Source: Nitrospirota bacterium
Lineage (GTDB): Bacteria > JACPQY01
Assembly: GCA_016190245.1 (NCBI GenBank)
Contig: JACPQY010000024.1
Span: forward strand, 121,620 to 185,619
Reading direction: 5' to 3'
DNA length: 64,000 bases
Shown here one piece after another: positions 2,870 to 18,103 of this stretch. Below the pieces are notes generated by a model. The model was not told the origin of the DNA, did not search any database, and was given only the letters and a program-made list of their open reading frames with translations. The position numbers were made by a program, and so were the translations under genes. Position 1 is the stretch's first letter; each line of letters opens with the position of its first letter.

Positions 2870-3268
2870 ATGAGCAAGTACTTGTTGCAGGCGGAAAAGT
2901 TCCACAAGAAGGCGCTGGCTGAGTTCCTCAAAGCCAAGAGAAACGGACTGGAGGAGACGGACATCATCCAGGCGGCGGAGAAGGGATGGCTTGCGGCGCA
3001 TCGGGCGACGAACGCGCTGCTGGAACGGCATGGGAAAAAGATCACGGCCGGAACGCAGCGGAAACAACAGGACTTGATCGATCTCGAGAGAGTATTCCCC
3101 GAGATCAAGAGGAGCGCCATCACCGACAAGTTCAACAGTTTCCACAGTAACTTGCACGTGGCTGCCGGCTGCATGGATTTTGTTTCAGCCAAGCTGATCG
3201 AGCGACACATCCGCGCGGTGGGCGAGTACATCCAAACCATTCGGCGGTTGACGGCGCGTGGGGGGTAA
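2870..3268 (+). CDS. Small all-helical protein, HEPN/PaREP1-like (hypothetical)
   Basis: 132-aa ORF. Codon usage is visibly AT-richer than the flanks (aaa/gaa/aag codons). The K/E-rich helical sequence resembles the PaREP1/HEPN superfamily. The assignment rests on pattern only. Confidence 0.45.
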   Translation: MSKYLLQAEKFHKKALAEFLKAKRNGLEETDIIQAAEKGWLAAHRATNALLERHGKKITAGTQRKQQDLIDLERVFPEIKRSAITDKFNSFHSNLHVAAGCMDFVSAKLIERHIRAVGEYIQTIRRLTARGG

Positions 3269-3508
3269 GAGGTCAGGCGAAGGATTTCGGCACGGTCGCG
3301 CGCACGGGATGCGTGAATCTGAGACTTGGCCTCACAGCCTCCGCACGTGCCCGGTCACGTTGGGAAGGTCACCGAGTTGGCCGAATTCCAAAGAAAGCAT
3401 AGGCGTGCATGTCTGACCCCCGCACCCCCACTACGCGGCCCGCCCCGCAACGATCGCGATCTCGACGGGGTCGCCGGGGATGGAGATGACGAGGGGGCTC
3501 ACCGTGCC

Positions 3509-3925
3509 CTACTGCGGTTCGCGCACCAGGCCCATCTGAACGAAGTGATGGTCGAACGCGAATACGCGCTGAACCCTGCGCTTCGCACACACCACCTGCG
3601 ACGTGCAGTCCGTAAACGACCATTTCTTGTCCGCGCCGATCCGCTCAAGCACTTCCCACGCCTCCGCCTCATCCTCGTGGGACAGATGCACGACGTCCAG
3701 TACACGACTTCGTTCCATCGCAAGTACCCGCTCCCGAAAAGCCCGCACCTTCTTTGGCCCCACCTCGCGAAGGAGTAGCGTGTACGTTTCATCAAACACG
3801 TAGCAACTGGTGACCAGCCGGTCCTGCCCAGCCGCGACGCCGTCCCGGTACCGTGCGGCCGCTTGGTGATGGCCGTCCGCCGGATCCTCCAGGGCCACCC
3901 AGCCGGAGGTGTCGACGAAGATCAC
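3509..3925 (-). CDS. vapC: PIN-domain ribonuclease toxin VapC
   Basis: 138 aa starting MIFVDTSGWVAL, with conserved acidic residues (D5, E.., D.., FTDCTS near the C-terminus) typical of VapC. Its start overlaps the stop of the upstream antitoxin ORF. Confidence 0.8.
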   Translation of the reverse strand: MIFVDTSGWVALEDPADGHHQAAARYRDGVAAGQDRLVTSCYVFDETYTLLLREVGPKKVRAFRERVLAMERSRVLDVVHLSHEDEAEAWEVLERIGADKKWSFTDCTSQVVCAKRRVQRVFAFDHHFVQMGLVREPQ

Positions 3926-4197
3926 GGACGAGATTTCGGCCTCGCCCCTTTCGCCCGGCGACCATACAGGTAGTCGTCCGCGCGCAGAGACAGATCCCCC
4001 GGCCCCCGTCCCTCGGACGGGTCACATCCCATGGCCAGGAGGGCCTGCCGTCCCGTGTCACCCTCGGTCTCTTGAACTTCCCTCTCCATGAGCGCCCTGA
4101 GAACCTCGGAGGCCGTCTTCCCCCGCCGACGTGACAATCTCTTGAACCCCTTCCAAGTATCCTCCTCGATCCGGATCGTGATGGCGGTATCCTTCAT
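3922..4197 (-). CDS. vapB: VapB-type antitoxin (ribbon-helix-helix/CopG-like)
   Basis: Within the 3922..4311 ORF, the ATG at 4197..4195 gives MKDTAITIRIEEDTWKGFKRLSRRRGKTASEVLRALMEREV..., an RHH motif. It overlaps vapC by 4 nt. The upstream 38 codons of the track ORF are R/G-rich and unlikely to be coding. Confidence 0.7.
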   Translation of the reverse strand: MKDTAITIRIEEDTWKGFKRLSRRRGKTASEVLRALMEREVQETEGDTGRQALLAMGCDPSEGRGPGDLSLRADDYLYGRRAKGARPKSRP

Positions 4198-6710: not shown

Positions 6711-9700
6711 ATGCAATGGACTGCACGACTAGGGAGAGATGGGGCGTGGCTGGTTTTCTGTCTTTTTTCCGTCCACGTCGCCAACACAGGATGTGACCGT
6801 TTCGACGGGGCGGCGCCCAAAGAAGCCCCGCCAAAGTCTTCCGCCGACCTGATCCGACTCGACGTAACGATTCCGCTCTCCCCCGAAGCCGCCGCGGCCC
6901 TCCTTGCCGTGCAGGAGCAGGACGGTCTGGTGGCCGACGTGGATCTAAACGGGCGCCGAGCGGCCCAGGAGCTGCCGGGCCGCGTTGAGGCCGGCGTTCG
7001 CGCGGGCGTTCGCGCCGGGATCCGCATGGCAGGCGCACCCACGGTGAAGCAAGGCGTCCGTGTCGGCGTACGGGCCGGCGTCCGTCTCTCCTCCGGGCGC
7101 GGAGGCGGTTCCACCTCGCCCACCCCCGGCTCGAATGTTGTCCTCGACTCCCGTTCGGTCTCAACTGGCCGCGGTGCGGGCGGTCTGGGTCTCGGCCTGT
7201 ACACGCCGCTCGAGACTCAGGATTCGTCCTCGCTCGTCGAAAGCCCACCTCTCCCCGCGCTCGAGGCCGACCCACCCGCGGGCGCCGACGAAATCGTTCA
7301 TCACTTCAGCACGTCGTTCGAGCTGCCGACGAACCTCGCGTCCGACGGGGGCAATCGCTTCGACTTTCGCATCCGCACCGAACGCCACGCCGACCTGATC
7401 CTCGCTCAGGTGAGCACGCTGATCCGCGCCACGTGGCGCGATCTCCCTTCGGCCTCGGACGGCTCGGGACAGGGCAACACGTCGGATCGTGCCCGCCGGG
7501 CGCTCGAAATCTCCCCGGAGCCGCTCGAGTCCTACGAAGTGGACCTCCCCGACCAAGACGGCGATGGCGTGGCCTCGCTCGTGGAGGTCGCCACCCTCGT
7601 GACGGTCCCTCCCGAAAACGGGGGCCGGCCGCTGACCTTGGACGAGGCCGCCCAGGCGGCCCGAACGGCCGGCGGACCTCAAGTCACCCCCTCGCAGGTC
7701 AAGACCGCGTTCAGCCTTCTCGCCAAGGATCTCGACGTTCGGACTCGAGAGGACCTGAACCGGAGCGGCACGCCCGCCCCTGCAACGTGGCACCCTGTGC
7801 TCACCCAAGCCGATCTCACAGCACCCGAGGCCCGAATCTCCGTTGACGCGACAACGCTCGTCGAAGGGAGCACGGTATCCGCCACACTGGACTGCAACGA
7901 AGCCGCCTGCGCCTATCGCTGCGCGCTCGACGGCGCCGAACCTGAGCCCTGCCCCGCCACGCTGGCCCTCACGCTCGCCCCCGGCTCTCACATCCTCGAA
8001 GTCCGGGCGGTAGACCCCTTCGGCAACCGCAGCGCCGACCCAGCCACCGCCGAGATCGTCGTGGCTCCGGCGCCCTCATGCTCGAGCGCCGCCTGCGAGG
8101 AGTCTCCGACCTCCTCCGACGAGCCCCCCCCCCCGGAGCCGACCGTCGAGTTCGCGGAACACCCGCCCCTGCTCTCGGCCGACCCGAGCGCGCGTTTCCA
8201 TCTGACTTCGGCTGCGCCCTCCGCGCGATTCGCCTGCCGGCTCGATACGGGCCGACCCTTCGCGTGCCCCTCAACGTTCGAGATCAAGAACCTCGACGAC
8301 GGGCCCCACACGTTGGCGGCCGGCGCATCCGCCGACGCGGCTCCCAATCTCTTCTCGTGGATTGTGGATCAGACCCCGCCGGATGCGGGTCGGGCCGGTC
8401 ACGCCACCACCGATGGGACCGCCTACCATGCCTCCGCAACCGTCTTCCCCGCCACCTGGACGGGTTTCTCCGACGGCCAGAGCGGCGTCGTGGGATTCGA
8501 GGTGAACCTCGGCACGGGGAACGATTGCCCCGGCGATACCCATCCCGGCGTCAAGGTGGGCGACACGGATCATGCCCTCCTCACCAATCTCTCCCTCGCG
8601 GATGGGCGGAAGTACTATTTCTGCGTCCGGGCCGTGGACCGGGCCGGGAACGCGAGCGCCTGGGCCGTGTCCTCCGGCACCGTCGTGGATCTTCGCCCAC
8701 CCGTCTCCGTGCCCCGAGCGCCCGCCAACGGTGCAAAGGTGGCGGCGGTCGGTCCGATCGGAGCAATCGCCGACGACACGTTGAGCGGCGTGCAGGAGGT
8801 CCGGGTCTCCATACAACGCGAGTCCGACCAGAAGTACTGGTCCGGCGGGTGGGTGGATCAGGAGTCCTGGCTGCCCGTGCAAAAAGAGGAAACGCTGTCC
8901 GATGCGGAACTCCCGGCCTGGATGATGGGCGAGTCCTACACCGTGCGGACCTTCGCCATCGACCGCGCCGGAAACGTGGAACCACTCAGCGCGCAGACGA
9001 AGTTCGTGTATGACACCGCGCCGCCCCTCTTCGAAGGGCTCGCGGGAGCTTTCGCCGTGGGCGACTCGGTCATCCTGAGCTGGACGCCCGCCCTCGACAA
9101 CGTGAGCGCCCCTTCGGACATGGTCTACCAGATCTGCCAATCCTCCACGGCCGCCGGGTGCGCGGCATTCACCTCCACCCAGGTGAGCGCGGCCGGGGCA
9201 TCCAGTCAGGTCGTCGCAAACGTGCCCGCGGGACCGGGCTACTTCGTGGTCCGCGCCCAGGACGAGGCGGGCAACTCCGATCCCAACCTGATCGTGCGTT
9301 CGGACGTCGCCGGGTTCGACGTGTGGGCCGGGCGCGCGCCGATGCCGACGCCCCGCACGACCGCTGGGGGGGCCGTTTCGGGGCTTGAACTGTACATCGT
9401 CGGCGGATATTCCGGCGGAGCGGTGCTCAACACCGTCGAAAGCTATAACCCGCTCCTCGACCGGTGGGTCGCCCGCCAGCCGATGCCGACCCCGCGCGAG
9501 GGGCCCGCCGTGGCCAAAGTGGACGAGCGGGTCTACGTGATCGGCGGGAGCAACGGCTCGGCCTTGAACGTGGTGGAGGTCTACGACCCGCAGGCGGGCA
9601 CGTGGACCACGCGAGCCGCCATGCCGACGCCCCGATCCCACGCCGCGGCCTGTGCGCTCGGCGGCAAGATCATTGTAGCCGGAGGTTGGAACGGAAGCGC

Positions 9701-10157
9701 CCTCGCTCAAGTGGAAGTGTACGACCCTGCCTCGGACACGTGGGCTGCCCTTCCCCCCCTGCCCAGCCCGCGCTGGCAGGCGGCCGCAGTGGTCGCGAAC
9801 GGCAGGGTCTACGTGCTGGGCGGGCGCTACGCCAGTGCGCTGAGCCTCGTGGATGAATACAACCCGTCCGGCAACTCCTGGGCGAGCCGCCCGCCCCTGC
9901 CGACCGCGCGATACGGCCTCGCAGCCGTTTCCCTCGGGAGTCGGATCATCGCGATGGGCGGCCGGGCCGAGCAGGCCAACGGCGTGGTCGAAGAGATCAA
10001 TCTCGACGCGGCGACGCCCTGGGCCACGCGCAGCTCCATGCCGACGCCGCGCGCGTCATTCGTGGCCGTGCCCTACGCGGGCAGGATCCTCGCGGTAGGC
10101 GGCGCCGGCGCCGCACAAGTCCTGGGCGTGGTCGAGGCCTACTCGCCGCTGCCGTAG
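6711..10157 (+). CDS. Giant secreted modular protein with signal peptide, GVRAG peptide repeats, DxDGDG calcium-binding motif, Ig-like CxxC-x-LDG domain(s), fibronectin/Ig-like repeats and a C-terminal six-blade Kelch beta-propeller
   Basis: 1148 aa with a good RBS (aaggggg) before ATG 6711 and an N-terminal hydrophobic segment. Contains GVRAGVRAGIR...GVRVGVRAGVR, DLPDQDGDGVASLVEV, and SATLDCNEAACAYRCALDGAEPEPCPATL...GSHILEVRAVDPFGN. The C-terminus has six Kelch repeats (LYIVGGYSGG...VYVIGGSNGS...IIVAGGWNGS...VYVLGGRY...IIAMGGRA...ILAVGGAGA). Confidence 0.85.
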   Translation: MQWTARLGRDGAWLVFCLFSVHVANTGCDRFDGAAPKEAPPKSSADLIRLDVTIPLSPEAAAALLAVQEQDGLVADVDLNGRRAAQELPGRVEAGVRAGVRAGIRMAGAPTVKQGVRVGVRAGVRLSSGRGGGSTSPTPGSNVVLDSRSVSTGRGAGGLGLGLYTPLETQDSSSLVESPPLPALEADPPAGADEIVHHFSTSFELPTNLASDGGNRFDFRIRTERHADLILAQVSTLIRATWRDLPSASDGSGQGNTSDRARRALEISPEPLESYEVDLPDQDGDGVASLVEVATLVTVPPENGGRPLTLDEAAQAARTAGGPQVTPSQVKTAFSLLAKDLDVRTREDLNRSGTPAPATWHPVLTQADLTAPEARISVDATTLVEGSTVSATLDCNEAACAYRCALDGAEPEPCPATLALTLAPGSHILEVRAVDPFGNRSADPATAEIVVAPAPSCSSAACEESPTSSDEPPPPEPTVEFAEHPPLLSADPSARFHLTSAAPSARFACRLDTGRPFACPSTFEIKNLDDGPHTLAAGASADAAPNLFSWIVDQTPPDAGRAGHATTDGTAYHASATVFPATWTGFSDGQSGVVGFEVNLGTGNDCPGDTHPGVKVGDTDHALLTNLSLADGRKYYFCVRAVDRAGNASAWAVSSGTVVDLRPPVSVPRAPANGAKVAAVGPIGAIADDTLSGVQEVRVSIQRESDQKYWSGGWVDQESWLPVQKEETLSDAELPAWMMGESYTVRTFAIDRAGNVEPLSAQTKFVYDTAPPLFEGLAGAFAVGDSVILSWTPALDNVSAPSDMVYQICQSSTAAGCAAFTSTQVSAAGASSQVVANVPAGPGYFVVRAQDEAGNSDPNLIVRSDVAGFDVWAGRAPMPTPRTTAGGAVSGLELYIVGGYSGGAVLNTVESYNPLLDRWVARQPMPTPREGPAVAKVDERVYVIGGSNGSALNVVEVYDPQAGTWTTRAAMPTPRSHAAACALGGKIIVAGGWNGSALAQVEVYDPASDTWAALPPLPSPRWQAAAVVANGRVYVLGGRYASALSLVDEYNPSGNSWASRPPLPTARYGLAAVSLGSRIIAMGGRAEQANGVVEEINLDAATPWATRSSMPTPRASFVAVPYAGRILAVGGAGAAQVLGVVEAYSPLP

Positions 10158-11323: not shown

Positions 11324-14300
11324 ATGGCCGAACGAGTGGAGCGACAGCAAGCCATATCGGAAATTCTAAGGAATCTTCACCAAACCAAAGCTAATGGGCT
11401 GAAGCAACTCTTCTGGACGGAGCTCAACTACAGCCAGGAAAACAGGCCGTTGAGCCCGCGTCCGTGGCCCGCGAGCGCCACGGAATCCCTGGATGATGAT
11501 CCGGTTCTGTTCGCCACCGGCGGCGAGGAGGGCGCGTTCCACGTCGTCTACGCGCGACTGTCCGGCGATACCCTCTCCCGCGGAGCGGAACGCCCCATCG
11601 TCAACCAACTCCTGCGCGACCATCCTTACGCGCTGTTCGTCTTCTCGAACAAGAGCCAATCGGCCTGGCATCTCCTGAATGTGAAGTATGACGACGCCGT
11701 GGAAAAGCGGCGCCTAATCCGCCGCATCTCGATTCGGGCCGGCGAGGGATTGCGGACCGCGGCAGAGCGCATGGCCTTGCTGGACCTTCAAGCCGTAAGC
11801 CCGAACCTCGTCGGGCTTTCGCCGCTCGCGATTCAACAGCGCCACGACGATGCGTTCGATGTGGAAAAGGTCACCAAGGACTTCTATCGCGAAATCGCCG
11901 ACTGGTACTTCTGGGCCATCGGGTGCGATCAGTTGTCCTACCCCCCGGACGTCCACCGGGACGACGAGAAAGCCCTTTTCCTGATCCGACTCCTCACCCG
12001 CCTGATCTTTTGCTGGTTCCTGCGGGAAAAGCGCAATCCGCGGACCGGGGAGGGCCTGATTCCTGACCCTATTTTCGATCCGCGTGGGATTGCCGGGTAC
12101 CTGAAAAACCCTTCTCCGGATTCCTGCTCCTACTATACGGCCATCCTCCAGAACCTCTTCTTCGCCACGCTGAATACTGAGATGGACCCACCCGCCGAGG
12201 AGGACAAGACTGGGCGACCACCGGAGCGCCGATTCGCGAAGGGGGCCGGCGATCACATGATTCACACCTTTTGGCGGCATAAGGACGATCTGCGCGACCC
12301 CGACGCGCTGACCCGCCTTCTACGCGGAATTCCGTTCCTGAACGGGGGTCTGTTCGAGTGTCTCGATGAACGGGAAGAAAAGGGGAGGTCGCCCTATACG
12401 AAGGAATTTCGCGTGGACGGTTTCTCGACCGATCCCGAGAAGCAGCCGAGACTGCCCAATTTCCTCTTCTATGGGCCGGGTCGGACGGCGGATCTCTCCG
12501 GCCCGTACGGCGATTCGACCCGGCGTCGCCAGACCGTCACCCCCATTCTGGAGATCCTGCGCCGGTACAACTTCACTCTCACCGAAAACACACCCTTCGA
12601 CCAGGAAGTGGCCCTCGATCCGGAACTGCTCGGGCACGTGTTCGAAAACCTCTTGGCCGCATACAACCCGGAAACGGAAACAGTAGCCCGCAATGCCACC
12701 GGCTCCTTCTACACCCCCCGAGTGGTGGTGGATTGGATGGTCGATCAGGCGATCACGGCGCGATTTGCCGGCGCCCTGAAGAATGGATCTCCCCTCGTGG
12801 GTGACCGGACGGAGAGAATTCGAAAACTCCTTTCATGGGAACACACGGATCACGATTTCAGCCCGCAGGAAACCGAAGTGCTGATCGACGCGATCGACAA
12901 CCTCAAGGCTCTCGATCCCGCCTGCGGCTCCGGCGCTTTCCCCATGGGCCTGCTCCAGAAGCTGGTCCATGTCCTGAAAAAGCTGGACCCCGAGAACAAG
13001 GCGTGGCGGAAGCGTCAGGAGGACAAGGCGAGGCAAATCGAGAGCAGCCCGACCCGCGAGGAAGCGCTCAAGGCCGTCGAACGCGCGTTCGCCCGCGACA
13101 ACGACGACTATGGCCGCAAGCTCTATCTCATCGAGAACTGCCTGTACGGCGTGGATATCCAACCCATCGCCGTCCAGATCGCCAAACTTCGGTTTTTCAT
13201 CTCGCTCGTGGTGGATCAGGCCATCGATCCGAAGGAGGAGAACTACGGCATCCTCCCCCTGCCGAACCTGGAAACGAAGATTGTGGCGGCTAACACTCTC
13301 GTCGGGCTGAAGCGGGGTCAACTCACCCTCCGCACGGGAAACGTCGAACGTCTCGAACAGGAGCTCAAACAGATTCGGCACGATTACTTCACCGCGAGAA
13401 TCTACAAGGAGAAGAAAAAGCTGCGGGCGCGGGACCGCGTCCTGTGCGGAGAGCTGGCCGAGGAGCTGGCGAAGTCCGGCGAGTTTACGACGCATGACGC
13501 CAAGCGGCTGGCCGAGTGGAATCCGTACAAGGCCAACGAGCCGGCCACCTTTTTCGATCCAACCTGGATGTTCGGCCTGACGTCCAACAAAACCGATGGA
13601 GTGTTCGATCTCGTCATCGGAAATCCTCCCTACGTTCGGCAGGAGGAACTCAAGAGCCGGATGGCCGTAGGGAGCGATGGGAAGGAGCGTCCGCTCAAGG
13701 ACGTCCTGAAAGAGCAGTACGAATGTTACGTGGGCACGGCCGATCTCTACGTCTACTTCTTCGAACGGTCCCTGCAACTGCTACGAATGGGCGGGATTCT
13801 GAGCTTCATCACGAGCAACAAGTATTTCAGGGCGGCGTATGGGGAACCCCTCCGGAGGTATCTCGCGTATGCCACGCGGCCGGCGGCGGCCCTCGATTTC
13901 GGCGAGGCTCCCGTTTTCACCTCGATCGTTGAACCAGCCATCCTCGTGGCGGAGAAGACACGACACATCAGCAAGGCGGAAGCGAAGCTGCCGGACTCTC
14001 TGGATGCGTATCCGCCGCCGGGGGACTGGAAATCCCGCGTTCTCACGTGGGTGCCAGCCAAGGATGGTGCGGCACCCCGCCAAGAAGGTCGGCCAGGAAG
14101 GTCGACGAAAGTAAGCGGGGCGCCGGGACCGGACTTCAGGGAGTTTCCGGAGATCTTCGAGCAGAAGGCCCAGGCCCTGCCACAGCGGGAGTTGAAACCG
14201 GACGGGTGGCGATTTGAAAGTCCGCTCAAACTCCGCCTCCTCGAACGATTGAAGAAGACGGGCACTCCGCTGGGCAACTACGTGAAGGGGCGGTTCTATT

Positions 14301-14725
14301 ACGGCATCAAGACCGGACTGAACGAGGCGTTTGTCGTGGACCGCGCCACGCGCGACCGCCTGATTGACGAGCACCCCTCATCGAAGGAAATCCTCAAACC
14401 CTTCCTCCGCGGCCGGGATGTGAAACGCTGGCGGTGCGAATTCGATGATCGGTATTTGATCAAGATTGAATCGTCGAAAAATGTGCATCACCCTTGGTCC
14501 GGGAAGCCGAAAAAGGAGGCCGAGAAAGTATTCGAAAAGACCTATCCGGCCGTTCACGGTTTTTTCGACGCAAAGAGGCAACCCCTCATCAAGCGATATG
14601 ACCAAGGGGAATACTTCTGGGAACTAAGATCGTGCGCCTACTGGCGGGAATTCGAGCAGCCGAAGATTTTGTACCCGGACATCTACGATCATCAGAGCTT
14701 TGCCTGGGACAGTGAAGGCTTCTAG
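11324..14725 (+). CDS. Eco57I/MmeI-type (type IIG/IIL, gamma-class) N6-adenine DNA methyltransferase with ~330-aa N-terminal domain and start of a TaqI_C-like target-recognition domain; terminated by an in-frame TAG inside that domain
   Basis: 1133 aa. Motif I is LDPACGSGAFPMGLLQKL, motif IV is VIGNPPYVRQ, and FITSNKYFRAAYGEPLRRYL plus ENCLYGVDIQPIAVQIAKLRFFISLV are typical of the Eco57I/PglX family. The C-terminal part (...AFVVDRATRDRLIDEH...KILYPDIYDHQSFAWDSEGF) is the first half of a TaqI_C-type specificity domain. The stop is TAG at 14723-14725. Confidence 0.85.
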   Translation: MAERVERQQAISEILRNLHQTKANGLKQLFWTELNYSQENRPLSPRPWPASATESLDDDPVLFATGGEEGAFHVVYARLSGDTLSRGAERPIVNQLLRDHPYALFVFSNKSQSAWHLLNVKYDDAVEKRRLIRRISIRAGEGLRTAAERMALLDLQAVSPNLVGLSPLAIQQRHDDAFDVEKVTKDFYREIADWYFWAIGCDQLSYPPDVHRDDEKALFLIRLLTRLIFCWFLREKRNPRTGEGLIPDPIFDPRGIAGYLKNPSPDSCSYYTAILQNLFFATLNTEMDPPAEEDKTGRPPERRFAKGAGDHMIHTFWRHKDDLRDPDALTRLLRGIPFLNGGLFECLDEREEKGRSPYTKEFRVDGFSTDPEKQPRLPNFLFYGPGRTADLSGPYGDSTRRRQTVTPILEILRRYNFTLTENTPFDQEVALDPELLGHVFENLLAAYNPETETVARNATGSFYTPRVVVDWMVDQAITARFAGALKNGSPLVGDRTERIRKLLSWEHTDHDFSPQETEVLIDAIDNLKALDPACGSGAFPMGLLQKLVHVLKKLDPENKAWRKRQEDKARQIESSPTREEALKAVERAFARDNDDYGRKLYLIENCLYGVDIQPIAVQIAKLRFFISLVVDQAIDPKEENYGILPLPNLETKIVAANTLVGLKRGQLTLRTGNVERLEQELKQIRHDYFTARIYKEKKKLRARDRVLCGELAEELAKSGEFTTHDAKRLAEWNPYKANEPATFFDPTWMFGLTSNKTDGVFDLVIGNPPYVRQEELKSRMAVGSDGKERPLKDVLKEQYECYVGTADLYVYFFERSLQLLRMGGILSFITSNKYFRAAYGEPLRRYLAYATRPAAALDFGEAPVFTSIVEPAILVAEKTRHISKAEAKLPDSLDAYPPPGDWKSRVLTWVPAKDGAAPRQEGRPGRSTKVSGAPGPDFREFPEIFEQKAQALPQRELKPDGWRFESPLKLRLLERLKKTGTPLGNYVKGRFYYGIKTGLNEAFVVDRATRDRLIDEHPSSKEILKPFLRGRDVKRWRCEFDDRYLIKIESSKNVHHPWSGKPKKEAEKVFEKTYPAVHGFFDAKRQPLIKRYDQGEYFWELRSCAYWREFEQPKILYPDIYDHQSFAWDSEGF

Positions 14726-14728
14726 TCC

Positions 14729-15259
14729 GTGAATACGACCTATTTTATTCCTACCACTGAGAAATGGCTCGCCGGGCTTCTGAATTCTCCGTGCGTCGAG
14801 TGGTTCTATTCCCAAATCGCCAACCGAGTGCGTGGAGGCTACATGCGCGCCTTCTCCGACTACATGAAGCAGGTCCCTATTCCAACCCTCTCTCCGAACC
14901 AACAACAATCCTGCGAGCGGCTGACCGAAGCGTTGATCTGGCTTCATTCCCCCCGAGTATCGAAGAAGACGACCGAAGCGCCGGTCGGCATGATGCAGGC
15001 GTATTTCGAGCAATGGCTCAACGGCCTCGTGTACGAACTCTTCTTCCCCGCCGAGCTCCACGCCCGGAAACTGACCCTCTTCGATGAAACCGCCAAGCTG
15101 AACCTCCCGGACCTCGCAGAAATTCCGGAGGCGCAGAAACTCCCCCGCCTCCGGGAATCGTTCGAGTCCGCCTACGACACCAACTCCCCCCTCCGCGCCA
15201 TGCTCTTCGACCTCCATTCCATTGAAGAAGTCCGCGTGATCGAGGAACGGACCGAATGA
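14729..15259 (+). CDS. Continuation of the methyltransferase specificity (TaqI_C-like) domain plus C-terminal tail, in the same frame as 11324..14725 and separated only by TAG + one codon
   Basis: Same reading frame (11324 and 14729 are both congruent to 2 mod 3). It begins SVNTTYFIPTTEKWLAGLLNSPCVEWFYSQIANRVRGGYMRAFSDYMKQVPIP, the second half of the TaqI_C consensus (..LLalLNSkl.ewyf...lrggy.rf...yl..lPIP), which is normally contiguous with the preceding ...FAWDSEGF segment. Confidence 0.6.
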   Translation: MNTTYFIPTTEKWLAGLLNSPCVEWFYSQIANRVRGGYMRAFSDYMKQVPIPTLSPNQQQSCERLTEALIWLHSPRVSKKTTEAPVGMMQAYFEQWLNGLVYELFFPAELHARKLTLFDETAKLNLPDLAEIPEAQKLPRLRESFESAYDTNSPLRAMLFDLHSIEEVRVIEERTE

Positions 15260-15327: not shown

Positions 15328-15356
15328 TTGACAGCATTAATATATATGTTAATAAT
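15328..15356 (+). promoter_or_regulatory. AT-rich promoter (TTGACA-17 nt-AATAAT) with a partial dyad (attaata...taataat), likely the operator of the TA(C) operon
   Basis: TTGACA at 15328-15333 and AATAAT at 15351-15356. A 150-bp AT-rich gap (15260-15409) sits between GC-rich genes. The toxin ATG is at 15410. Confidence 0.45.
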
Positions 15357-15409
15357 GCCGATTCTAGTGGTGGAAGTACAGCAGGAATCGGTGCGCCAAG
15401 GAGCGGGGC

Positions 15410-15742
15410 ATGCCACTTCGGCAGGTCGCCTTCGGAAAACAGGGCACCGTAGCTGAATACGTACGAAGTGGTGGCCGATGTCCGGCGCGCGTTTTCTTGG
15501 ACTGGTGCCAAAAGCCGATGCGGGACAAGTTTGACGATGCGTTCGTTGCCCTCGTGAGAATGGGAGCAAGTTACGTCAACCAAGAACGATTCTGGCTCTT
15601 ACATGGGCATGGAAAACCCCTGTGGGAGTTCAAAGAACACCACCACAGACTCTACTGTGCCAGAGAGCAGGTTGGACCGGCTGTGAGGGTGATTCTTCTA
15701 CATGGGTGGAAAAAACAGAAGGAAGGTGGGACCAAAGAATAG
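15410..15742 (+). CDS. higB: RelE/HigB-superfamily toxin, phage Gp49-like (DUF891) family
   Basis: 110 aa. ...LWEFKEHHHRLYCAREQVGPAVRVILLHGWKKQ matches the Gp49-like/HigB toxin family signature. It is followed by an XRE-HTH gene in toxin-first (HigBA) order. Confidence 0.7.
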   Translation: MPLRQVAFGKQGTVAEYVRSGGRCPARVFLDWCQKPMRDKFDDAFVALVRMGASYVNQERFWLLHGHGKPLWEFKEHHHRLYCAREQVGPAVRVILLHGWKKQKEGGTKE

Positions 15743-15819
15743 GACCAAGAAATTCGGAAAGCTTTGAACTTATACATAGAGTTTCAGCAAGAAGAAAAAA
15801 TGATCGGAAAGGAGGAAGT

Positions 15820-16257
15820 ATGGAGAAGACTAAGCCATTGAGTCGTTCCCCCGCTCTAACCCGCCGGGATCTGGAAAGGGCTGAGGGTGTGGCCATCGCC
15901 ATGGCGCAGGCCACGATCCAAAATGCAATGGATGGCGCGAATATCACGAAGGCCGAGCTTGCCAGGAGACTTCGCAAGAAGCCTCCCTATATTACGCGCA
16001 TGATGCAAAGCGATCACAATTTGACAATCAGAACGTTTTCCGGCGCACTCGCGGTATGCGGATTTGAGGTGGACTTCGAGTTGGCTCCGCTCGGTCAGAG
16101 CTGGTCGCTCGCACCGGTCCAACGTACCTTCTACCGATCACGACCTCAAGCAAGCGTGACGCCTCCCATTTTGGGGGGCGTTCCTACGTGGTCGGCAAGA
16201 CCCGACTTCGCGGGAACGCTCCCCTTGGTTGGTTCGCTGGATTCGAGAGGAGATTAG
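15820..16257 (+). CDS. higA: XRE-family HTH antitoxin (HigA-like) with ~50-aa C-terminal extension (candidate chaperone-addiction region)
   Basis: ATG at 15820 is preceded by ggagga. HTH is ITKAELARRLRKKPPYITRMMQSDHNLTIRTFSGALAVCGFEV. The C-terminal tail QSWSLAPVQRTFYRSRPQASVTPPILGGVPTWSARPDFAGTLPLVGSLDSRGD is absent from plain HigA proteins. The 3-prime end overlaps the next gene by 29 nt. Confidence 0.7.
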   Translation: MEKTKPLSRSPALTRRDLERAEGVAIAMAQATIQNAMDGANITKAELARRLRKKPPYITRMMQSDHNLTIRTFSGALAVCGFEVDFELAPLGQSWSLAPVQRTFYRSRPQASVTPPILGGVPTWSARPDFAGTLPLVGSLDSRGD

Positions 16258-16759
16258 CGTGGCCGAGGATATCGATCTAGGAACGGTTGCCAAGATTGCG
16301 CGACGAGCGCGTCTGCTGGACATACAACTCGCTTTACTACAGGCAACCACTCAATCACGGCCGGGGGGCGAACTTGTTCCAGCACATAAAGTGTCTTCCG
16401 TCCTGCTTGGTCGAAAGGACTCCGGCGCCGTCATTGCCTCCTCATTCGCATTCACGGTTACCGTTGGTCAGGCTCAAGTCGCTGAAGTCAGCATGACATT
16501 CCACTTGGTGTATGAATTCGAAGGCCAAGATCCTCTATCGGACGACGACATCGGCCATTTCGCCAGAGGGAACGGAACGTACCACGCATGGCCCTACATG
16601 AGGGAAATGTTGAGCAATCTCCTCCCGCGTATGGGCTTCCCCCCCTTTACCCTTCCCGTTCTTGTATTCGGACAGCCTCAGCGGCAAGCACCTCAATCTG
16701 AAACGAAACAGGATGGACCAAGGGACGATCAAACAGAGGTGAAGGAACCAACCGTATAA
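16229..16759 (+). CDS. SecB-like chaperone (TAC-system chaperone, SecB_TA-like)
   Basis: 176 aa. The C-terminal segment GNGTYHAWPYMREMLSNLLPRMGFPPFTLPVLVF parallels the SecB motif (..CPNILFPYARE.I..LV.RGGFP.L.L.PVNF). Gene order toxin-antitoxin-SecB matches M. tuberculosis Rv1955-1957. Confidence 0.6.
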   Translation: MVRWIREEISVAEDIDLGTVAKIARRARLLDIQLALLQATTQSRPGGELVPAHKVSSVLLGRKDSGAVIASSFAFTVTVGQAQVAEVSMTFHLVYEFEGQDPLSDDDIGHFARGNGTYHAWPYMREMLSNLLPRMGFPPFTLPVLVFGQPQRQAPQSETKQDGPRDDQTEVKEPTV

Positions 16760-16870
16760 GCAGATTCCCGCCGAGGCAAGGGTGGTCCGCCTTTGAGTCA
16801 AGAGAAGAATCGAACGGGCGATCCCGTTCAGTAACTTGCATTTTAACCATCAATCGGCTAAATATCAGCC

Positions 16871-18103
16871 GTGATTCAGCGGCATATCTCGGGGAACTTG
16901 GACGAGTCTCTGGCGGACACCCCGGTGGCGCTCCTGACGGGCGCCCGGCAGACGGGCAAAACGACTCTCGCCATGGAGTGGGCCGGCCGAAGAAAGGCCC
17001 GGTACTTCACACTCGATGAAGCCGCAACCCTGGCGGGAGCCGCCTCCGACCCGCAAGGATTCATCGAAAATCTCGAACAGCCGGCGGTCATCGACGAGGT
17101 TCAAAAGGTTCCGGCCCTGCTTCCCGCCATCAAACTCCGAGTGGATCGCGATCGTCGGCCAGGAATGTTCCTTCTCACGGGTTCGGCCAACGTCCTCACG
17201 CTCCCGAAGGTGTCGGAATCGCTGGCAGGAAGGATGGAGATCCACAGGCTCTGGCCCCTCTCACAAGGCGAAATTCATGGCCGACACGAAGACTTCATTG
17301 CCACCGCGTTCTCCAAAAGGCCCCCGCGGGCCGTTTCGAACGGACTCATCCCCCTCGCACGGCCCATTACGGTGGGAGGCTACCCTGAAGTCCAAAAACG
17401 CAAGGGGAACCGCTCGGCAGCATGGTTCGGCTCATACATCAGCGCCCTTCTTCAACGCGACGTGCGGGACCTGGCGCACGTGGAACGCCTCACGTCCATC
17501 CCCAATCTTTTGACGCTCCTCGCCACCCGCTCGGCGTGCCTCCTCAACACTTCCGACCTCACGCGCGACGCGCGCATCGCCAACTCAACGCTCAAACGAT
17601 ACCTCAGCCTCCTGGAGATGATTTTCATCGCCTATCGCCTGCCCGCATGGTCGGTCAACCTCGGCAAACGTCTGGTCAAAGCGCCCAAGCTGATGCTGTG
17701 CGATACGGGCCTGGCCTGCCACTTGCTGGGCGCGGATGAGAACCGCTTGAACGGGGACGCGACCCTGAAGGGCAGGCTGACGGAAAACTTCATTTCGAAT
17801 GAATTGCACAAGCAGGCCACCTGGTCCGCTGTGTCTGTCCGCATTTTCCACTTCCGTTCGGCGTCCGCGCAGGAAATCGATTTTATCCTGGAGGATACAC
17901 GGGGGCGAGTTGTCGCCATCGAGGTGAAAGCCTCGCACACCGTCCGGCCCGAGGATTTCCATCCCATGAGGGCCTTGGCCGAATCGTTGAAGTCCCGTTT
18001 CATCCGGGGCATTCTTCTGCATGACGGCCGGCAGGTTATTCCCCATGGGGCAAATCTCTGGTCCGCGCCGTTTTCGTGTTTGTGGTCCGCCGGAGAATCC
18101 TGA
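16871..18103 (+). CDS. AAA+ ATPase of the DUF4143/AAA_14 (COG1373-like) family
   Basis: 410 aa. Walker A is LLTGARQTGKTTL and Walker B-like is MFLLTGSANVL. The C-terminal DUF4143-like region ...IDFILEDTRGRVVAIEVKAS has the typical architecture of this widespread ATPase family. Confidence 0.8.
   Translation: MIQRHISGNLDESLADTPVALLTGARQTGKTTLAMEWAGRRKARYFTLDEAATLAGAASDPQGFIENLEQPAVIDEVQKVPALLPAIKLRVDRDRRPGMFLLTGSANVLTLPKVSESLAGRMEIHRLWPLSQGEIHGRHEDFIATAFSKRPPRAVSNGLIPLARPITVGGYPEVQKRKGNRSAAWFGSYISALLQRDVRDLAHVERLTSIPNLLTLLATRSACLLNTSDLTRDARIANSTLKRYLSLLEMIFIAYRLPAWSVNLGKRLVKAPKLMLCDTGLACHLLGADENRLNGDATLKGRLTENFISNELHKQATWSAVSVRIFHFRSASAQEIDFILEDTRGRVVAIEVKASHTVRPEDFHPMRALAESLKSRFIRGILLHDGRQVIPHGANLWSAPFSCLWSAGES

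Follow-up and report, generated by a model that had tools for sequence, protein, structure and literature searches.

We analysed a 64,000-nucleotide (nt) window of DNA from a Nitrospirota bacterium (contig JACPQY010000024.1, positions 121,620 to 185,619) and examined the locus at window positions 15328–16759, for which a first-pass annotation had proposed a complete toxin-antitoxin-chaperone (TAC) module. The locus is a HigB toxin/HigA antitoxin/SecB-like chaperone operon of the Mycobacterium tuberculosis type. It is not a complete module: a nonsense codon removes helix α3 of the toxin. The features of the operon are as follows.

15328–15356, + strand: σ70-like promoter (TTGACA, 17 nt, AATAAT) matching 11 of 12 consensus positions
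15334–15358, no strand: imperfect palindrome GCATTAATA-N7-TAATAATGC within the promoter spacer
15410–15742, + strand: HigB/Gp49-like toxin gene, truncated, with 110 codons and then TAG at 15740–15742; AAGGAG lies 6 nt upstream
15743–15841, + strand: in-frame remnant beginning DQEIRKALNLYIEFQQEEK, which codes for the C-terminal helix α3 of the toxin family, ends with TGA at 15839–15841 and overlaps the antitoxin start
15820–16257, + strand: HigA-like antitoxin of 145 amino acids (aa) with an ATG start; AAGGAGG lies 4 nt upstream
16180–16215, + strand: ChAD-like motif VPTWSARPDFAG (antitoxin residues 121–132), named for its likeness to the M. tuberculosis ChAD core
within the antitoxin: tail peptide GVPTWSARPDFAG and an upstream W/F/Y patch (residues 93–106), candidate chaperone-contact segments
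16259–16759, + strand: predicted SecB-like toxin-antitoxin (TA) chaperone of 166 aa with a GTG start, called from homology, fold and PADLOC
16811–16830, no strand: GC-rich hairpin 52 nt past the chaperone stop, a possible operon end

The toxin, antitoxin and SecB-like open reading frames (ORFs) are co-oriented on the + strand, with a gap of 77 nt between toxin and antitoxin (ancestrally a 22-nt overlap) and of 1 nt between antitoxin and chaperone. A single promoter lies upstream of the toxin gene, and the three genes form one operon with the shared direction and the order that characterize a TAC. Each of the three has homologues, with E-values well past those expected by chance. The promoter sits in the sole AT-rich stretch 5′ of the toxin gene; position 15328, where the region noted originally begins, is its −35 box. 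Type II TA systems typically regulate themselves, and by analogy the palindrome at 15334–15358 is a candidate operator for the helix-turn-helix (HTH) antitoxin. The hairpin past the chaperone gene is a weak candidate for the end of the operon, as it was scored as a terminator on the − strand only and has no T-run on the + strand. The locus was also found in three separate sequencing-run assemblies. Two of these (L007 and L008) start inside the AT-rich promoter, at about window positions 15334–15345, and the third runs on into the methyltransferase gene upstream; the breaks could be caused by low coverage or by strain variation at this junction.

The third gene starts at the GTG at 16259, 1 nt past the antitoxin stop, and not at the TTG at 16229 that had been annotated. 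GGAG lies 6 nt upstream of the GTG, homologues align from it, and both the NCBI and the Logan gene calls give a protein of 166 aa. The 29-nt overlap with the antitoxin gene is an artefact that arose because the longest ORF was taken. As a single sequence the protein matches SecB models below threshold, with 15.7 bits in Pfam (cut-off 26 bits) and an E-value of 0.008 in NCBIfam, and a word-indexed protein search returned no match except the query itself. When all PDB sequences were searched with phmmer, the best match was M. tuberculosis Rv1957 (5mtw, E 4.7e-7), followed by Haemophilus influenzae SecB. HMMER, run exhaustively against 1.84 billion representatives, gave 1543 relatives at E ≤ 1e-3; even though some of these representative clusters are housekeeping SecB, the description of such systems as comparatively rare was overstated. 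A profile built from 59 family members matches Rv1957 over nearly its full length with E 1.9e-19 and canonical (H. influenzae) SecB with E 3e-3, and 21 of the 59 match Pfam SecB individually. PADLOC adds a weak match to PD-T4-9_C, its model for the CmdTAC chaperone (E 2e-5).

The AF2 model of the chaperone (pLDDT 87.9) has a four-stranded sheet and a long helix. Foldseek places 5mtw at the top (TM 0.81–0.83, root-mean-square deviation 2.3 Å), followed by canonical SecB from H. influenzae and Escherichia coli (1fx3, 1qyn, 1ozb), and the SecB fold is thus found by both the profile and the AF2/Foldseek route. The first-pass annotation had read this gene as SecB-like and had named the lack of any SecB-fold match as the result that would count against it; we looked for this outcome and did not find it. 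Two of the elements of Rv1957 known to contact the ChAD, D27 and L154-P-P-L157 (PMC6377645), have counterparts here: D27 is an Asp in the window protein and invariant across the subfamily, and the LPPL segment (154–157) reads FPPF. Sequence and model together point to a SecB-like TA chaperone. It is hardly credible that the gene encodes a housekeeping SecB export chaperone that lies beside a HigBA pair by chance. Such a reading could draw on the label ‘preprotein translocase subunit SecB’ that JGI gives to many of the relatives, and on the report that M. tuberculosis SecB(TA) can replace E. coli SecB (PMC6377645). It is opposed by the gene start 1 nt past the antitoxin stop, by a linkage to the TA pair that is kept in at least 16 loci across phyla, by the TA-dedicated Rv1957 being closest in both sequence and fold in place of an export SecB, and by the ChAD-like tail on the antitoxin.

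The antitoxin consists of an XRE-type HTH domain (about residues 25–88) and a C-terminal tail of 57 aa (residues 89–145), in agreement with the extension of about 50 aa that had been proposed. Pfam HTH_31, HTH_3 and HTH_37 match the single sequence below threshold. A profile of six orthologues matches XRE proteins in the PDB with E 1.6e-5, HicB HTH domains with about 5e-4 and E. coli HigA (2icp) with 0.056, and a Cro/C1-type HTH domain is thus present. In the tail, VPTWSARPDFAG resembles the ChAD core of M. tuberculosis HigA1, 104-EVPTWHRLSSYRG-116 (PMC6377645): both have VPTW, F takes the place of the key Y114 and G116 is retained, so that VPTW-x5-F-x-G stands against VPTW-x5-Y-x-G, whereas R110 is not matched at its position. 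When the tail was shuffled 20000 times, only 81 shuffles gave a local alignment score as high as the observed one (p ~0.004). The motif is not shared by the antitoxin orthologues, which lack VPTW and have instead a common PLxWxW patch directly past the HTH domain. Both the length and the sequence of ChAD elements differ from one to another (PMC5105189). We regard the likeness of this motif to the ChAD as suggestive, not decisive.

The Rv1955–Rv1957-type arrangement proposed in the first-pass annotation is supported. The toxin-HTH-SecB-like order recurs in several phyla, at 16 or more loci that are unrelated (L001, L002, L005, L012 and L014, with 11 further genome loci). It is kept in an Acidobacteriota contig (L001), in a Thermoanaerobaculia metagenome-assembled genome (MAG; L002–L004), in L012 and L014, and on a contig that resembles a plasmid and has genes for ParA, RPA and Prim-Pol (L005). 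When one genome was scanned for each GTDB species, 14 loci were found, 12 of which have all three genes in order; at one of the remaining two the contig ends early, and the other (L021) has no chaperone gene downstream. In L021 (positions 14–768, a Planctomycetota MAG), a toxin of the same family and an HTH antitoxin are present and an unrelated ORF takes the place of the SecB-like gene; this locus is possibly a relative with two components. Most of the hosts are Acidobacteriota, and Myxococcales, Planctomycetota and Binatus are also represented. HigBA-type TACs are in this way extended to a divergent family that escapes the present thresholds of Pfam and NCBIfam and that ranges over Nitrospirota, Acidobacteriota, Myxococcota, Planctomycetota and Binatota.

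The 110-aa ORF of the toxin has no curated match in Pfam or NCBIfam, and of the Pfam families originally expected for the three proteins, SecB and HTH_3 are matched below threshold and Gp49 is not matched by this ORF at all. A Gp49 (PF05973) match emerges only when the stop codon is read through; it spans the stop and, at 16.2 bits, stays below the 23.9-bit cut-off. We collected 14 homologues with 43–56% identity, and 12 of the 15 family members match Pfam Gp49 below threshold (best E 1.7e-4). A profile of the toxin family found no meaningful match among PDB sequences, and hhalign gave no alignment of the family with the single HigB1 sequence. The toxin call rests on the fold because the profile search of the PDB sequences found no meaningful match.

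The fold was tested on a full-length homologue, P0005, which is 53–54% identical to the window toxin, and not on the window product itself. Its AF2 model (pLDDT 85) shows a β-α-α-β4 arrangement and a long C-terminal helix at residues 104–129. With this model, Foldseek places Streptococcus pneumoniae HigB (6af4) at the top (E 1e-6, TM 0.68–0.74), and its best folds also include several RelE and YoeB toxins and M. tuberculosis HigB1 on the ribosome (7nbu_Y), with TM 0.56–0.60 over 126 columns. P0005 thus has the RelE/BECR fold with a long C-terminal helix, and the window product has lost that helix. Going by the model of this relative, the toxin is one of a divergent family of RelE-fold proteins that are Gp49/HigB-like; as far as the fold goes the original label is right, even though the family fails the Pfam threshold. 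Short database calls for the family, of 85–99 aa, are start-codon artefacts whose missing N-terminus is coded upstream in frame. In the orthologous loci L001 and L002 (positions 3851–4000 in each), the called toxins miss the N-terminal strand and helix, which are coded upstream in frame without an ATG, and translation probably starts at a codon other than ATG.

A full-length toxin is not encoded at this locus. The TAG at 15740–15742 (codon 111) aligns with a Glu that is present in 14 of 14 homologues; every one of them reads through this position, and the window toxin is shorter than all of them. Past the TAG, the toxin frame continues for 32 codons up to the TGA at 15839–15841 with no further stop, and the translation aligns with the conserved helix of the homologues. 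In the P0005 model the stop falls at residue 106, so that essentially the whole of α3 is removed. This helix is conserved in the toxin family, with A118 invariant and E124 near-invariant. The mutation was most simply GAG to TAG.

The TAG is a real allele. The sequence that carries it is identical in the three run assemblies (SRR12113385, SRR12113390 and SRR12113401), with 0 mismatches in 1350 nt. The window does come from a MAG, a type of sequence in which single-base errors occur, and it could be argued that the stop is a sequencing or assembly error in a gene that is really intact. Given the identical TAG in all three assemblies, and as no intact allele was found, we consider this next to negligible: in a search of 5.8 billion proteins the next-best match shares only 50% identity, and two collections of genome and metagenome contigs held no match to a DNA pattern in which NNN replaced the stop.

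Two characterized relatives indicate what the loss of α3 would mean. In the HigB toxin of the M. tuberculosis TAC, α3 runs beside the P-site tRNA and contacts it, toxicity is impaired by K113A and by R117A, and with K113A no activity is left in vitro (PMC9098466). In Vibrio cholerae HigB2, α3 packs on the sheet at a site contested by an antitoxin helix (PMC5416850). From these roles, a toxin that has lost a conserved helix of 26 residues should be crippled or destabilized, and we think it rather likely, by analogy, that the window toxin is disarmed or strongly attenuated.

Several points weigh against this interpretation or narrow its basis. All matches of the window proteins to Pfam and NCBIfam are below the curated thresholds, and the three run assemblies have neighbouring accessions and probably sample one population. 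The putative catalytic core precedes the stop; its residues E73, K75, R80, W100, K102 and K104 are motif-matched to E66, R68, R77, F93, K95 and K99 of the M. tuberculosis TAC toxin. The basic α3 residues that are important in M. tuberculosis are not kept, α3 of this family being acidic and hydrophobic, and some RNases of the RelE superfamily have no α3, namely Proteus vulgaris HigB, BrnT and MqsR (PMC5416850). The 110-aa product could keep some activity.

These observations bear on the possibility that the TAC is fully functional, with a native and active 110-aa toxin, and that the conserved sequence past the stop is a recent relic or an antitoxin leader. The core β-sheet and the putative catalytic residues before the stop would suit it, as does the existence of RelE-fold RNases that lack α3; the antitoxin and chaperone genes are intact, each with a strong Shine-Dalgarno sequence, as expected where a live toxin needs control. 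It is difficult to reconcile with the Glu at the stop position and the conserved helix after it in all 14 homologues, with the requirement for α3 in the closest characterized TAC toxin (PMC9098466), and with the proportions of the protein: α3 makes up 26 of the 130 residues of the model and packs on the sheet in this fold class, so its removal should destabilize the toxin. We judge a fully functional system unlikely, though it deserves to be kept in mind.

A regulated leak offers another way to account for an intact and conserved frame past the stop. Rare readthrough would then yield a little full-length toxin, the abundant truncated form would act as a non-toxic decoy that binds the antitoxin, and such an attenuator would have arisen more than once. 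A second lineage gives it some substance: in a Bryobacterales MAG (L023, CAWAUR010000003.1, positions 3280–3369), the toxin gene has an in-frame TGA (GAC TGA GAA ATT) two codons past the position of the window TAG, and the helix frame downstream is intact. Against this, there are two cases only, and nonsense events are expected in the linker, where many Lys, Glu, Gln and Arg codons can become a stop by a single change. L023 is moreover a long-read MAG that also has homopolymer frameshifts, the tRNA search of the window found no suppressor tRNA and no readthrough signal was found, and the 32 codons past the stop are too few for a selection test. We consider the leak very improbable, and attach equally little credence to the broader proposition that stops at the junction of toxin core and α3, arisen independently in two lineages, mark a selected state and not decay. 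If a selected state did exist, a readthrough-limited toxin dose would be possible; so would a toxin-core decoy by which the antitoxin and chaperone stay in use as a pair, be it as a module against addiction or as a phage-sensor module without a warhead.

Other members of the family also have interrupted genes. The SecB-like gene of L023 is frameshifted in a G-run, and sequencing error is possible in this long-read MAG. L026 (positions 3271–3360) has one additional A in an A-run of the same toxin linker together with a frameshifted chaperone gene, and in L025 (positions 2968–3392) the toxin is frameshifted mid-gene. L025 and L026 are long-read MAGs from one project; an error in L026 is possible, as its chaperone gene also has a homopolymer frameshift.

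Building on the homology, the folds, the gene order and the position of the stop relative to the fold, we consider it probable that the locus is a horizontally acquired HigB-HigA-SecB(TA) TAC operon whose toxin carries a nonsense mutation and is now disarmed or strongly attenuated. Transcription would start from the promoter at 15328–15356 and would probably be autoregulated through the palindrome within it. In an intact member, a HigB-like RelE-fold toxin would cleave mRNA on the ribosome, the HTH antitoxin would bind both the toxin and its presumed operator, and the SecB-like chaperone would bind the aromatic ChAD tail and thereby keep the antitoxin soluble and shielded from proteolysis. Titration of the chaperone, for example by a phage structural protein, would free the toxin. 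In the window copy the antitoxin and chaperone genes are intact, and the nonsense codon at position 111 leaves a toxin without the whole of α3. The neighbouring type IIG methyltransferase is likewise interrupted by an amber codon, which suggests a decaying or domesticated defence island. The locus represents a natural case of a TAC with a cut toxin in which the antitoxin and chaperone persist, and it should be annotated as a TAC with a truncated toxin rather than a complete system, with an interrupted type IIG methyltransferase next to it. Neither interruption changes the understanding of TAC systems, and we describe the locus as a divergent new representative of a known system class, with a toxin that is probably attenuated.

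Among known systems, the M. tuberculosis Rv1955-Rv1956-Rv1957 operon (HigB1/HigA1/SecB-TA) is the closest in gene order and in its three protein classes. Rv1957 is the best counterpart of the window chaperone in sequence and fold, with D27 and the PP motif kept, and the toxin family has a long C-terminal helix, as Gp49-like HigB toxins typically do. The two systems differ in that chaperone identity is only 23–27% by structural alignment, the toxin is detectable by fold only, α3 is acidic and hydrophobic in place of basic, and the window toxin is cut by a stop before α3. HigBAC of E. coli NT1F31 and the Geobacter lovleyi TAC are HigBA-type as well, a likeness drawn from their description and not from sequence, and unlike them the window system has a truncated toxin. 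HigBAC is antiphage, its chaperone sensing a phage protein through the aromatic pattern that it reads in the ChAD (bioRxiv 10.1101/2024.02.24.581848), and the window copy lies inside a defence island. An antiphage role is established for TACs, the chaperone serving also as the phage sensor (bioRxiv 10.1101/2024.02.24.581848; PMC11618068). CmdTAC (PD-T4-9) shares the chaperone-addiction logic and gives the weak PADLOC chaperone match; its CmdT toxin, however, acts on mRNA as an ADP-ribosyltransferase and is no RelE-fold RNase, and the antitoxin is of an unrelated kind. Among solved structures, the nearest in fold to the toxin family, S. pneumoniae HigBA (6af3/6af4) and V. cholerae HigB2, are Gp49-like HigB toxins with a long α3, but belong to two-component systems that have neither a chaperone nor a ChAD tail.

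As the first-pass annotation had it, the module lies inside a defence cassette, with a methyltransferase upstream and two further candidate defence genes downstream:

16871–18103: PDC-S01 candidate defence ATPase (AAA_14 and DUF4143 domains; PADLOC E 5e-157)
18107–21451: HKD(PLD) and Snf2 helicase, 3 nt after the ATPase (PADLOC C3a139, E 4e-82; DrmD-like matches)

GC content drops from about 0.70 to 0.52–0.60 between about 11.0 and 21.4 kb, a stretch that covers the methyltransferase, TAC, ATPase and helicase genes and has its minimum at the TAC promoter and toxin; this is as expected for an acquired island. The upstream neighbour is a type IIG methyltransferase of the Eco57I family (PADLOC REase_MTase_IIG, E 1e-94) that is split by an in-frame TAG at 14723–14725 into ORFs at 11324–14725 and 14729–15259. 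With the two ORFs joined, a TaqI_C specificity domain spans the TAG (E 3.7e-18), and relatives have Phe or His at this position. Two adjacent and potentially costly defence genes, the methyltransferase and the toxin, thus have one amber codon each. We discarded recoding of TAG as unlikely: where the toxin has its in-frame TAG the homologues have Glu, but at the TAG of the methyltransferase they have Phe or His; TAG is also the ordinary stop of the antitoxin gene, and no tRNA gene was found in the window.

The placement of the module next to the methyltransferase and the nuclease-helicase had been taken to suggest an abortive-infection or island-stabilisation coupling. The related TACs do not support this: they lie in unlike contexts (a plasmid-like element, an IS1 neighbourhood, housekeeping genes), and no methyltransferase or helicase occurs in the five annotated neighbourhoods. 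We therefore rejected a recurrent linkage of the TAC family to restriction-modification or helicase genes (0 of 5). Comparison of these neighbourhoods suggests that the TAC module is an independent mobile unit, and it lends no support to a functional coupling with its neighbours in the island. The high-GC flank directly before the island contains a gene for a Kelch-repeat protein of 1148 aa (window positions 6711–10157).

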